Of a stretch of 64,000 nt of DNA, positions 6,851 to 46,463 are shown piece after piece (positions within the stretch are counted from its first letter, which is position 1; each line of letters begins with the position of its first letter). The DNA lies in assembly GCF_044324875.1 (NCBI RefSeq), contig NZ_CP172185.1. One strand, 5' to 3'. A program made the translations under genes and the position numbers. The notes below the pieces were generated by a model. That model was given only the letters and a program-made list of their open reading frames with translations. It was not told the origin of the DNA and did no database searches. Source of the DNA: Escherichia coli (GTDB lineage: Bacteria; Pseudomonadota; Gammaproteobacteria; Enterobacterales; Enterobacteriaceae).

Positions 6851-7240
<390 letters not shown>

Positions 7241-9444: not shown

Positions 9445-9550
9445 TGCCGGATACGGTGCACCTGTAGGCCTGATAAGACGCATCAAGCGTCGCATCAGGC
9501 ACTATGCTCAAATGCCGGATGCGGCGTAAACGCCTTATCCGGCATACACA
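9445..9550. repeat. REP/BIME cluster
   Basis: GCCGGATACGG...TGTAGGCCTGATAAGACGC...GCGTCGCATCAGGC...GCCGGATGCGGCGTAAACGCCTTATCCGGC units between yjgA and mpl. Confidence 0.85.
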
Positions 9551-15699: not shown

Positions 15700-15805
15700 A
15701 GGCATGATAAGACGCGGTAAGCGTCGCATCAGGCTTCAGTGCACCATCGCCGGATGCGGCGCGAGCGCCTTATCCGGCCTACGAATCGGCATCAGGCATA
15801 GCAAC
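15700..15805. repeat. REP/BIME cluster
   Basis: GCATGATAAGACGCGGTAAGCGTCGCATCAGGC ... GCCGGATGCGGCGCGAGCGCCTTATCCGGCCTACG units between ytfR and ytfQ. Confidence 0.85.
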
Positions 15806-25332: not shown

Positions 25333-25509
25333 AGTATTTCATTTATCAGCAGTCTGAATTTTAACCCTCTGGCGGCTTTACAGTACCTTACGCTATACTA
25401 GCCACTGAAAATGCCGGTTCACTTTCTTCGAATCGGCTTTCAATGTGTATTTCACACAAATTAATCAACTTCCCCTTCCGAGGATCTGGCCTGAAAGGTC
25501 GGATAAGAT

Positions 25510-29953: not shown

Positions 29954-30142
29954 TTCTCCACCTCGTCTCTGTGAGCGGTGTTAACTTATTGTTTTACTTA
30001 TACCCTATCGTTAATGAATGCGCCAACTGTGATAGTGTCATCATTTTCAAAGCGTAAAATTGTGGCATTCTTCACTGTTCTATAAGTAAGACGTTTATTC
30101 TCCCTTTTCTTTCGTATTCCCGATGATAAAAGGATGTCCCTG

Positions 30143-40786: not shown

Positions 40787-41425
40787 ATGCCCGGGCGCTT
40801 TGAACTAAAACCAACCCTGGAGAAAGTCTGGCACGCGCCGGACAATTTTCGCTTCATGGACCCGCTGCCGCCGATGCATCGTCGGGGGATCATTATTGCC
40901 GCCATTGTATTGGTGGTCGGATTTCTGCTTCCATCTGATGATACGCCCAACGCGCCAGTGGTGACGCGTGAAGCGCAGTTAGATATTCAGTCGCAATCAC
41001 AACCGCCGACAGAAGAACAGCTGCGGGCGCAGCTAGTTACGCCACAAAATGATCCTGATCAGGTGGCCCCGGTCGCTCCAGAACCTATACAGGAAGGCCA
41101 GCCAGAAGAGCAGCCGCAAACTACCCAAACGCAACCATTCCAGCCAGATAGCGGAATTGATAATCAATGGCGCTCTTACCGTGTCGAACCCGGTAAAACG
41201 ATGGCGCAGCTGTTCCGCGACCACGGACTGCCCGCTACCGATGTCTATGCAATGGCGCAGGTAGAAGGCGCGGGTAAGCCGCTGAGTAATTTGCAAAACG
41301 GGCAGATGGTGAAAATCCGCCAGAACGCCAGCGGCGTGGTGACGGGCTTAACCATTGATACGGGGAATAATCAACAGGTCCTGTTTACCCGCCAGCCGGA
41401 TGGCAGTTTTATTCGTGCGCGGTAG
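40787..41425 (+). CDS. ytfB: OapA-domain cell-division protein YtfB
   Basis: 212-aa product [48 protein letters not shown]... (membrane anchor, Pro/Gln-rich linker, OapA C-terminus). Confidence 0.92.
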
Positions 41426-41499
41426 ATGAAGGGTCAACCAAAAGCCAGCTAAGGATTGTCTCTTTGATGACCTTACGTCTGGCTTCCAGTGCCTGAGGT

Positions 41500-41720
41500 G
41501 AAACCATACTGATATGTTGACATCCTCCACGCCCTGAAGGACGTGGATCCCTGCTACGTTCAGGCTGTCGCCTAAATCATTTCGGGGGGTTCCTGCTTCA
41601 ACGAGCGGCCTGACTGCACCATCTCTCCACAGGCAAGAACGGCGTGCCCCGCCGCTAAAATGTTACGAGCGCCATTTACATCGGCGTTCGCTGTATATCC
41701 ACATGCCTGGCATCTGAATT
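41500..41720 (-). ncRNA. Predicted omega (re)RNA of TnpB, overlapping tnpB 3' end and right end of the IS; putative guide = flank just beyond RE (about 41501-41516)
   Basis: Inference from established TnpB biology (guide RNA derived from tnpB 3' end/RE); presence of RE hairpin at 41527-41546. No transcript evidence. Confidence 0.35.
41527..41546. repeat. IS right-end subterminal hairpin
   Basis: 5-bp + 2-bp stem with single mismatch and TGAA tetraloop; near-identical copy at other end of element. Confidence 0.7.
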
Positions 41721-42768
41721 TACTTTGTGACAGGCGATTTTCTTTCGCTGTATGACCACAGCACGCGCAACGCTGGCTTGTGTACGCTGGCGGAACAGCA
41801 AGCACCTGACCGCCACGCCAGAGCTGCTTGTACTCAAGCTGGCGGCGCATTTCATACCAGCCCTGATCCAGTATCGAACGGTTTAAACCTGATTTTGCCC
41901 GGACATTGCGCCCCGGCTGGCTGACCGTACCCGCTGCTGACTTTGACATGTTGCTGACCTTCAAATCCTCAATGACTATCATTGCGTGGTTTTTGCTGAC
42001 GGTCGTTGTGACTTTGTGAAGGTAGTCCCTGCGGATATTTGCGATACAGGAATGCAGTCGCTGTATTTTGCGTTTCTGCTTCTGCCAGTTATTGCTGAAT
42101 TTGACCTTGCGGCTTAACTGTCGCTGAAGTCTCGCCAGCTTCTTCTGGTTTTTCTGAAAACTGTTTACAGGCTCAAAGACTGTGCCATCTGACAGCGTGG
42201 CGAGTTTAGCCACGCCAGCATCCAGCCCGACCATTGATGCTGAAGGGTGAACCGGAGTTGATACTTCATTTTCAGTCTGAATACTGATGTACCACTTACC
42301 GCAGGACTGGCTGACAGTGACATTTTTCACAACACCCGTGACCTGACGGCTATTCCGGTAGCGCATCCAGCCAAGTTTCGGCAGAAAAATACGGCTGTTT
42401 TCCTGATCGAGCTTAACGCCCTGCGGGTAGCGGAATGCATCATTCTGTCCCCGCTTTTTGAATCGGGGAAAAGCAGCCCGCTTCTGGAAGAAGTTTTTGT
42501 AAGCCCGCTCAAGGTCTTTCAGTGACTGTTGCAATGGCTGTGAGGGCGAATCTTTAAGCCATTGCGTTTCAGTGGCGTTTTTCCACTCAACCAGCCAGGA
42601 AGCCATTTTCCCGTAAGGGATGTATTTATTACCGGCCTCATGATTCTCATTCTGACGTGCCAGAGCACGATTGAAAACGAAACGACATGCGCCTGCGAAG
42701 CGCCTCATTTCACGCTCCTGTTGACCACCGGGTCTTAACTGGAATTTAAATGCCTGTAGTCGTTTCAC
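41572..42768 (-). CDS. tnpB: TnpB (IS605 OrfB) RNA-guided endonuclease, apparently intact
   Basis: 398-aa [39 protein letters not shown]...; RuvC-I D (MVGLDAGV), RuvC-II E (MIVIEDLKV), Zn finger CACCGH...CQACG and RuvC-III D ([10 protein letters not shown]) all present. Confidence 0.92.
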
Positions 42769-42775
42769 AGGCCAA

Positions 42776-43390
42776 ATGATACTTTGGTCTGTGAGAAAAG
42801 AAACCGATATCCGGCGTGGAAGGCATTGTGTTTTCCTGATGCATGTTCACCAGGTCTTTGTCACCAAATACCGACGTCAGATTTTTGACCATGACGCGAC
42901 AGAAAAACTACGCACTTACTTTTCAAATGTATGTGCTGATTTTGAAGCTGAACTGGTTGAAATGGATGGCGAACCAGATCACGTCCATTTGTTAATTAAC
43001 TATCCTCCCAAACTGGCGATATCCAGTCTGGTAAACAGCCTCAAAGGCGTATCGGGTAGGTTACTGCGACGAGATCGACCAGATATTGCAGTCAGGTATT
43101 ACTACAAAGGCGTTTTGTGGAGTCCTGGCTATTTTGCCAGTAGCTGCGGAGGTGCGCCAATATCCGTCATCCGCCAATACATTGAACAACAGCAAACACC
43201 TGATCAGGTGGAAAACCGCGCCTTATATCCCCGCCCTGAAGGACGGGGTTTTACGGCGCACCGGATAAACCAGGCCAAGCGTATGCTGGTTGATCAAATA
43301 ATATCCCCCAAGCGCAGCAATATTAATATTCACCTGCAATGGGTCGATATCTGGCTTAAAAATATTGTGTTTCCTCCCTTCATCCAATAA
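42776..43390 (+). CDS. tnpA: IS200-type Y1 (HuH) transposase TnpA, ORF reading through the IS left end into flanking DNA
   Basis: ORF contains KYRRQIF, HuH motif HVHLLI and catalytic-Tyr region [11 protein letters not shown]...QYIEQQ; typical TnpA ends soon after, but here no stop occurs until 43388-43390, beyond the end hairpin (which encodes [10 protein letters not shown]). Confidence 0.8.
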
Positions 43391-43483
43391 GGATTCCATT
43401 AACTGCAAGTGCGCATGATTAATTTCTAAGAGACACTGTGATTTTGCATAATGCACACCTTTACTTTGGTTTTCACTATGCAC
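43223..43483 (-). pseudogene. ytfA-like ORF, 3' end replaced by IS-end sequence (possible TetR-like C-terminal fragment)
   Basis: 86-codon frame from GTG 43481-43483 ([73 protein letters not shown]...) runs into the IS hairpin ([13 protein letters not shown]). Identity with K-12 ytfA is from position and memory only. Confidence 0.5.
43239..43258. repeat. IS left-end subterminal hairpin
   Basis: CCCCGCCCTGAAGGACGGGG, same architecture as 41527-41546. Confidence 0.7.
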
Positions 43484-43832
43484 AATTTTTAAAAACCAGG
43501 GATTAGCAATATAATAATCCCAGGTAAAATCGATGATTTTTTCAATGGCTTTTTGTGGCTGGTTAACCTGCTGATTAACAAACGCACCGATACCGACAGC
43601 GTAGAATAATTACATACCGCACAACAAGAATGTATGGTGTAAGGCGTTGTCAGTCATCTCCCTCCCTGGGTGCATCGTTATATCCGTGATGAGCGATTTT
43701 TGATATTAATATCTTTCACCATCCGCTATTTTCACTACTTCAGAAAACAAACTTATTTTTATTAATATCGATTCTTTTTCTTTGAGCATTTAACTACGAT
43801 ATTTATAAAAAAATTAAACAGGCAAAAATACA

Positions 43833-45741: not shown

Positions 45742-46155
<414 letters not shown>

Positions 46156-46463
46156 TTATTCAGCCTCCTGTCTGGGTCAGCCGAATCCCGGGGAGGCAAG
46201 GAACGTGTTAAAGGTCGGCTGAAAAATGACGCGTTATAGTACTGACATACCCCGCTAAACTCAAGGCCAGCCGACAAATAAATCTCATCTTTCACCAAAT
46301 CGTACTAACACGCTGATTTGAAGTTCATCACACTTCATCATGGTGTTTTTTTGAACAACTGCATCAGAAATGGTCACCATCAACTTCTTTATCATTGATT
46401 AAAATTAAATCAGAAGATCATCACAGAGGAGAGCACACAAAGTCAGCCGTTGAGGAGGTATCT

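Follow-up and report, generated by a model that had tools for sequence, protein, structure and literature searches.

The tnpA gene of the IS609 copy in the window (the whole stretch of Escherichia coli DNA that we analysed, 64,000 nucleotides) reads without a stop through the end of the element into host DNA, and the explanation is very probably that an old, vertically inherited IS609 copy in ytfA has lost its tnpA stop codon by a TAG to CAG change at position 43205. The open reading frame, 42776..43390 on the + strand, comprises 204 codons (204 aa) with a TAA at 43388-43390, and residues 18-139 match the full Pfam Y1_Tnp model (E = 3e-41). Its translation includes the HUH motif (H69-V-H71) and the catalytic Tyr135, QYIEQQ occupies residues 134-139, and the peptide encoded by the end hairpin corresponds to residues 151-160. 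The frame is divided as follows.

42776..43204, + strand: canonical part of tnpA, codons 1-143 (Pfam Y1_Tnp; comparison with WP_000604943.1)
43205..43207, + strand: lost stop, CAG in the window, TAG in canonical IS609 and in the outgroups
43208..43264, + strand: read-through inside the IS, codons 145-163, translating the left end (LE) and its hairpin
43265..43390, + strand: read-through in host DNA, codons 164-204 (43265-43387) plus the TAA, codon-aligned antisense to ytfA

The sequence-only reading had described a frame continuing for about 60 codons past QYIEQQ, crossing the end hairpin into flanking DNA and overlapping a ytfA-like frame on the opposite strand, and each of these points is confirmed. 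The frame extends 61 codons beyond the end of its relatives, 20 in the IS left end and 41 antisense to ytfA; codons 144-163 (43205-43264) are IS DNA and include the end hairpin at 43228-43248, and translation together with the mapped IS end at 43264 puts the stop at 43388-43390 in the flank. The overlapping frame is ORF 43223..43483 on the - strand, which encodes a TetR_C_29 domain (E = 9e-16). The length of the read-through carries no signal, because 22% of all codon positions in the six frames of the window precede at least 61 sense codons. The antisense ytfA frame is poor in stops, which arise there only opposite TTA, CTA or TCA.

Alignment with other copies of the IS, the check that had been proposed for the read-through, locates the canonical stop at TAG 43205-43207. 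In O157:H7, the copy inserted at exactly this ytfA site keeps TAG at the equivalent position and encodes the 143-aa TnpA WP_000604943.1, named in RefSeq "IS200/IS605-like element IS609 family transposase". TnpA homologues of Salmonella, Photorhabdus, Morganella, Klebsiella, Proteus and Yersinia are 138-146 aa long and have their C-terminus at the identical residue, ...QQ(Q/E)TP(G/S/D). In all three outgroup genera whose DNA was read (Salmonella, Photorhabdus and Klebsiella) codon 144 is TAG, and solved members of the family have 133-159 aa, with homology ending near their C-termini. Because the O157 same-site copy and the outgroup genera stop at that codon, TAG is ancestral and the CAG of the window is a stop loss, not part of a naturally long TnpA. 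As in a stop-loss pseudogene, orthologues keep the ancestral stop and the frame of the derived allele runs on into unrelated DNA, and the window lacks the canonical-length tnpA ending at the conserved TAG that would mark an autonomous copy. PGAP labels the window-identical tnpA a pseudogene with the wording "missing C-terminus". The lost stop codon that had been suggested from the letters of the window is borne out by the same-site TAG of O157, the ends of the orthologues, the TAG of the outgroups and the PGAP pseudogene call. Stop loss in IS609 tnpA is ordinary mobile-element decay, already flagged as a pseudogene in RefSeq.

Compared with the O157:H7 IS609, the window copy has CAG instead of TAG at codon 144, 204 instead of 143 tnpA codons and a tnpB shorter by 4 codons; the two share the insertion site, divergent tnpA and tnpB genes 7 bp apart and hairpins at both ends. 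Within TnpA, the window differs from the O157 reference by K7R, L26Q, R31K, K51N, A131V and G143D. Of these, L26Q (42852 T>A, changing codon 42851-42853 from CTG to CAG) affects a residue of the HVHLVFV strand that at least 90% of aligned homologues share; among the sequences examined, the change is confined to the window lineage. The K-12 IS609 remnant between ydcO and ydcL shares with the window the TAG to CAG change at codon 144, an intact tnpB and the PGAP wording "missing C-terminus"; it consists of insQ/ydcM and a tnpA pseudogene called ynck (PMC2891674). Unlike the window, the K-12-type copy has TGA at codon 96, and its read-through tail would be 25 rather than 61 codons long because the host flank differs.

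The element itself is assigned to IS609 of the IS200/IS605 family, with the following parts.

41517..43264, - strand (tnpB orientation): IS609 copy, 1748 bp, delimited by comparison with the empty site and with other loci
43264: left end (LE)
41517: right end (RE), ...TCAA on the - strand
43265..43268, - strand: target tetranucleotide TTAT (ATAA on the + strand), immediately 5' of LE
43228..43248, - strand: LE subterminal imperfect hairpin, 21 nt
41526..41546, - strand: RE subterminal hairpin, 21 nt
41572..42768, - strand: tnpB/insQ, open 398-codon frame (Pfam HTH_OrfB_IS605, OrfB_IS605 and Cas12f1-like_TNB)

The empty ytfA site of strain F11, where ytfA is intact and uninterrupted, is CATACTGATGTG|ATAAACCAGG; comparison of the empty and filled sites places the IS of the window between 41516 and 43265 with 0 duplicated bases. 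Homology shared with IS copies elsewhere in the chromosome ends at about 43264-43274, and ATAAA, which adjoins the IS at both the ytfA and ydcL sites, occurs once in the empty site. Insertion 3' of TTAT without target-site duplication (ytfA and ydcL sites) is a trait of the IS200/IS605 family, as are the like-stranded subterminal hairpins at both ends in place of terminal inverted repeats, the accessory TnpB/OrfB gene (the 398-aa ORF 41572-42768, - strand) and a Y1 HUH transposase with H69-V-H71 and Tyr135. The LE and RE hairpins are direct repeats of 90% identity (repeat family D4) and are the only 2 matches to this repeat in the 64-kb window, where about 0.01 would be expected by chance. Their - strand folds have energies of -16.1 and -17.4 kcal/mol, with z-scores of -3.0 and -4.0. 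The assignment to IS609 was made by proxy, from the RefSeq name of TnpA in same-site copies and the literature name of the K-12 copy: same-site copies called "IS609 family transposase" in RefSeq are 98% identical to the window in the tnpA region, and the K-12 ydcL copy, named IS609 in the literature, differs from the window copy at 33 of 1,748 positions. Pairwise differences among sampled IS609 copies amount to about 1-3% of IS positions.

IS608 of Helicobacter pylori and ISDra2 of Deinococcus radiodurans, the members of the family whose structure and mechanism have been characterised, resemble IS609 in having subterminal hairpins on one strand and in inserting 3' of a short target that is not duplicated, and their Y1 HUH TnpA proteins of about 140-155 aa match the window TnpA with E = 1e-17 to 1e-19. 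The right end of IS608 finishes in TCAA, and so does that of IS609. In IS609, unlike IS608 and ISDra2, tnpA is divergent from tnpB and its 3' end abuts LE; with the gene pointing toward LE in this way, translation crosses the end hairpin and leaves the element once the tnpA stop is lost. The annotated starts of tnpB (GTG, - strand) and tnpA (ATG, + strand) are 7 bp apart (42768-42776), so each promoter must sit within the opposite gene. Homologues of TnpA with 138 aa begin at the equivalent of Val6 (GTG at 42791), and this GTG may be the true tnpA start.

A sequencing or assembly error had been raised as another source of the read-through. A single-base difference is error-like, and nothing else speaks for this explanation, which has next to no probability: no fewer than 27 complete genomes, each assembled independently, match the 2.3-kb region at 100% identity, 179 genomes carry the exact 53-nt haplotype, and thousands of metagenomic and genomic protein records show the 204-aa form. 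For the window haplotype, the annotation in all 12 sampled rows is that seen at the ytfA site. The window allele is real and lineage-fixed.

How common is the lost stop in E. coli? An exact-haplotype search of 5,426 complete E. coli genomes, with a 53-mer and every 28-nt seed spanning the variable sites, gave these counts for codons 143-144.

GAT-CAG (window): 179 places in 179 genomes
GGT-TAG (stop kept): 1,743 places in 1,561 genomes
GGT-CAG (stop lost): 6,714 places in 4,217 genomes
GAT-TAG: none in the 5,426 complete E. coli genomes
GGC-CAG: none in the 5,426 genomes, save one 28-nt partial match on a plasmid

CAG is therefore present at 6,893 of the 8,636 places counted, about 80% of IS609 copies. 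The mildly unexpected part of the result is that most E. coli copies of IS609 have one and the same stop-loss allele, which occurs alongside TAG at several orthologous loci. At the ytfA site, 8 of 19 evenly sampled copies are labelled IS609 transposase, a rough estimate of the allele taken from annotation labels rather than from the linked stop and flank (59 nt apart); the two copies so labelled that were read are intact, with TAG. Reference copies with the same long TnpA had been named as the observation that would speak for a natural length, and here the outcome is divided: the protein of the reference type is short, but read-through forms, with lengths that depend on the flank, make up the majority of copies in E. 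coli. CAG copies occur at no fewer than five loci, that is at least at ytfA, yeaQ-yeaR, yedK-ybcM, ydcO-ydcL and yfeD-gltX, and the read-through proteins of different loci have a common IS-encoded segment followed by locus-specific tails.

ydcL: 168 aa (upstream nonsense codon ignored)
gltX: 180 aa
ytfA: 204 aa
yeaQ: 320 aa
Other read-through records: about 213-224 aa, yedK-type tails included

In strain 24AR0142, the 320-codon frame of the yeaQ-yeaR locus (L009, 1599-2561) runs antisense through a DUF1869 gene into yeaR.

We retrieved and aligned 13 IS609 copies from six loci, and at ytfA, yeaQ-yeaR and yedK-ybcM both TAG and CAG are present at one and the same insertion site. The TAG and CAG copies at yeaQ have 6 differences over the whole IS, the nearest other one lying 250 bp from the stop. 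Since both alleles occupy the same site at three loci, the change arose or was copied in after insertion, which argues against a functional, C-terminally extended transposase whose CAG allele has spread by continued transposition, with a new tail at each insertion. This alternative can draw on the intact catalytic motifs, on the five loci where CAG is found with tails of varied length, on the 6,714 + 179 CAG places against 1,743 with TAG, and on the tolerance of C-terminal tails in some Y1 families; that CAG is the majority state in E. coli and is present at five or more loci could mean that stop-less copies were still mobilised. It is nonetheless improbable, in view of the shared insertion sites, the nonsense codon TGA at codon 96 in many CAG copies, the L26Q replacement added in the window copy, a tnpA pN/pS near neutral and the lack of IS609 transposition in K-12 mutation-accumulation lines.

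The sequence-only reading had also considered that the arrangement might be natural, with the end hairpin doubling as a terminator or attenuator. On that account tnpA would be stop-less by design, and the hairpin would limit transposase through non-stop messages; the + strand hairpin is G+C-rich and followed by TTTTA, and most E. coli copies are stop-less. A natural stop-less design appears already largely ruled out by the conserved stop, and we regard it as highly improbable: TAG is kept in the Salmonella, Photorhabdus and Klebsiella relatives and in 1,743 E. coli copies, all orthologous proteins end at the canonical residue, and the canonical stop lies 21 nt before the hairpin. The hairpin moreover fails simple terminator criteria in a consensus scan of the + strand, and its RNA fold has the U-run that follows the inner stem base-paired within an outer stem. 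A terminator or attenuator role was rejected on the negative scan and fold, and the conserved upstream TAG makes such a role unnecessary. In IS200 of Salmonella, end-proximal hairpins limit tnpA expression, and these regulatory hairpins are at the tnpA 5' end, acting through termination and RBS occlusion. IS200 and IS609 are alike in that end structures overlap the transposase transcript, but the IS609 hairpin is 3' of the canonical stop and a regulatory role for it is unsupported.

The stop loss itself is a single T-to-C transition at 43205, converting TAG to CAG, and an adjacent G-to-A change at 43203 converts GGT to GAT and replaces Gly143 with Asp. As GAT-CAG is found in 179 genomes and GAT-TAG in none, the order of steps is read as TAG to CAG first and GGT to GAT second. 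Together they produce an inverted repeat around the lost stop.

43197..43210, no strand: perfect 14-bp palindrome CACCTGATCAGGTG around the lost stop

At the same place canonical IS609 has the quasi-palindrome CACCTGGTTAGGTG, and in the stepwise series CACCTGGTTAGGTG to CACCTGGTCAGGTG to CACCTGATCAGGTG both changes raise the complementarity of the existing imperfect inverted repeat. The perfect palindrome CACCTGATCAGGTG has a central GATC (Dam) site, where canonical CACCTGGTTAGGTG has a Dcm site (CCTGG) instead. The palindrome was also considered as a conserved functional element and rejected as such, being unconserved in the Salmonella, Photorhabdus and Klebsiella relatives. Quasi-palindromes are known as template-switch mutation hotspots in E. 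coli, and Dcm-DNA complexes are reported to stimulate template switching (PMC7202029, PMC6357072). The IS609 stop site resembles the E. coli hotspots in being a short imperfect inverted repeat made perfect by exactly two changes, and it differs from known template-switch hotspots in that the repeat is very short and only one central base undergoes a transition at each step. The base changes hint at template-switch mutagenesis at the 14-bp quasi-palindrome, and ordinary point mutation would account for both steps equally well.

The presence of both alleles at three orthologous loci implies recurrent mutation or gene conversion. A second change, codon 96 TTA to TGA (43062 T>G, codon 43061-43063), occurs in copies at ytfA, ydcL and yedK (L007, L011, L013, L014 and L016), with TAG-144 in some and CAG-144 in others; different loci also have in common a haplotype of three sites, 42544/42547/42549. 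Because the codon-96 TGA and the 42544-42549 haplotype are common to several loci, gene conversion among IS609 copies is suggested. A more specific proposal is that TAG to CAG is a recurrent hotspot change, templated by the Dcm-bearing 14-bp quasi-palindrome and then spread by gene conversion between copies. We consider this proposal doubtful as a whole. Both alleles do occur at three loci, but the cross-locus markers point to gene conversion, and GGC-CAG, the double change predicted by template switching, is absent.

What would the stop loss do to the transposase? Translation from 42776 would stop only at the first in-frame stop beyond the element, the TAA at 43388-43390, and the product would be expected to be a non-functional or weakened TnpA, with an unselected tail of 61 residues attached directly behind the helix bearing the catalytic tyrosine and with L26Q in the conserved core. 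Should transcription terminate close to the hairpin, it would yield a non-stop message, to be dealt with by tmRNA. The window copy is probably immobile unless TnpA is supplied in trans, with tnpB still open. tnpA is pseudogenised in 10 of the 13 aligned copies, and in the literature on K-12 IS609 the K-12 copy is reported to be inactive and IS609 to have shown no transposition in K-12 mutation-accumulation lines (PMC5009759, PMC2891674). As a counterpoint to inactivity, the window TnpA retains, undamaged and in frame, the whole Y1 domain with its HUH motif and Tyr135. Long C-terminal tails are natural in other Y1 (TnpA-REP-like) subclasses (PMC6006769), and by analogy such a tail may be tolerated. 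A structure prediction of the 204-aa product (alignment A2; mean pLDDT 40, pTM 0.34) is too poor to distinguish a disordered tail from one that clashes with the core.

The tnpB gene has a different history from tnpA. Among 11 copies, a small sample, pN/pS is about 0.78 for tnpA and about 0.28 for tnpB, so that tnpB looks constrained and tnpA nearly neutral. The full 402 codons of tnpB are retained in 10 of 13 copies, and the window copy is open at 398; PGAP calls the window-identical tnpB insQ and intact. The 4 missing codons reflect a G>A at 41574, which changes CAG to TAG on the - strand (41572-41574), and the window TnpB ends in ...PPEMI* (398 aa) compared with ...TEMIQATA* (402 aa) in 10 other copies. 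This stop gain in tnpB is the mirror image of the stop loss in tnpA. At the ytfA site of strain MS8324 (L006), an 11-bp deletion, equivalent to 42689-42699 of the window, frameshifts tnpB. Three Rfam matches, all below their gathering scores, fall at the tnpB 3' end and RE (41504-41687, - strand): HgcC (25 bits, E = 0.004), RAGATH-18 (29.5 bits) and sot0042. We take this region to be the expected place of the TnpB guide (omega) RNA. Nothing known to Rfam overlaps the tnpA read-through.

The host gene is represented in the window by two fragments.

43265..43559, - strand: upstream ytfA fragment (TetR family), TetR_C_29; 96% identity to F11 ytfA over 43265-43559 only
41409..41516, - strand: downstream (C-terminal) ytfA fragment, PGAP pseudogene

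The ytfA frame is continuous once the IS is removed. With the IS in place, the frame of the upstream fragment enters the IS LE by 41 nt and stops at 43223, and PGAP calls it a "hypothetical protein". ytfA is damaged twice: besides carrying the IS insertion, it lacks about 80 codons that make up the N-terminal HTH part, and homology to the intact 215-aa ytfA of F11 ends at 43559. Elsewhere in the window, the following Rfam families score above gathering score.

9467-9544, - strand: naRNA4 (CssrE)
15701-15779, - strand: naRNA4 (CssrE)
25391-25448, + strand: STnc450
30020-30142, - strand: ES239 sRNA
46135-46219, - strand: RpsF leader

For annotation, the 204-codon ORF should not be taken as a new long transposase, the part of it antisense to ytfA is not a gene, and the IS609 copy of the window is probably non-autonomous. 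The literature that mentions IS609 consists nearly entirely of resistome and mobilome surveys, none of which describes the stop loss. If the doubtful hotspot proposal were true, IS609 would have a built-in directional route from an autonomous element to one that is tnpA-dead and tnpB-retaining, and this would explain why about 80% of copies are stop-less alongside a tnpB under purifying selection. The wider significance is modest: the pattern agrees with the general decay of IS200/IS605 elements into TnpB-only forms, and the IS609 stop site could serve, on a small scale, as a natural system for telling quasi-palindrome mutagenesis from gene conversion between IS copies.
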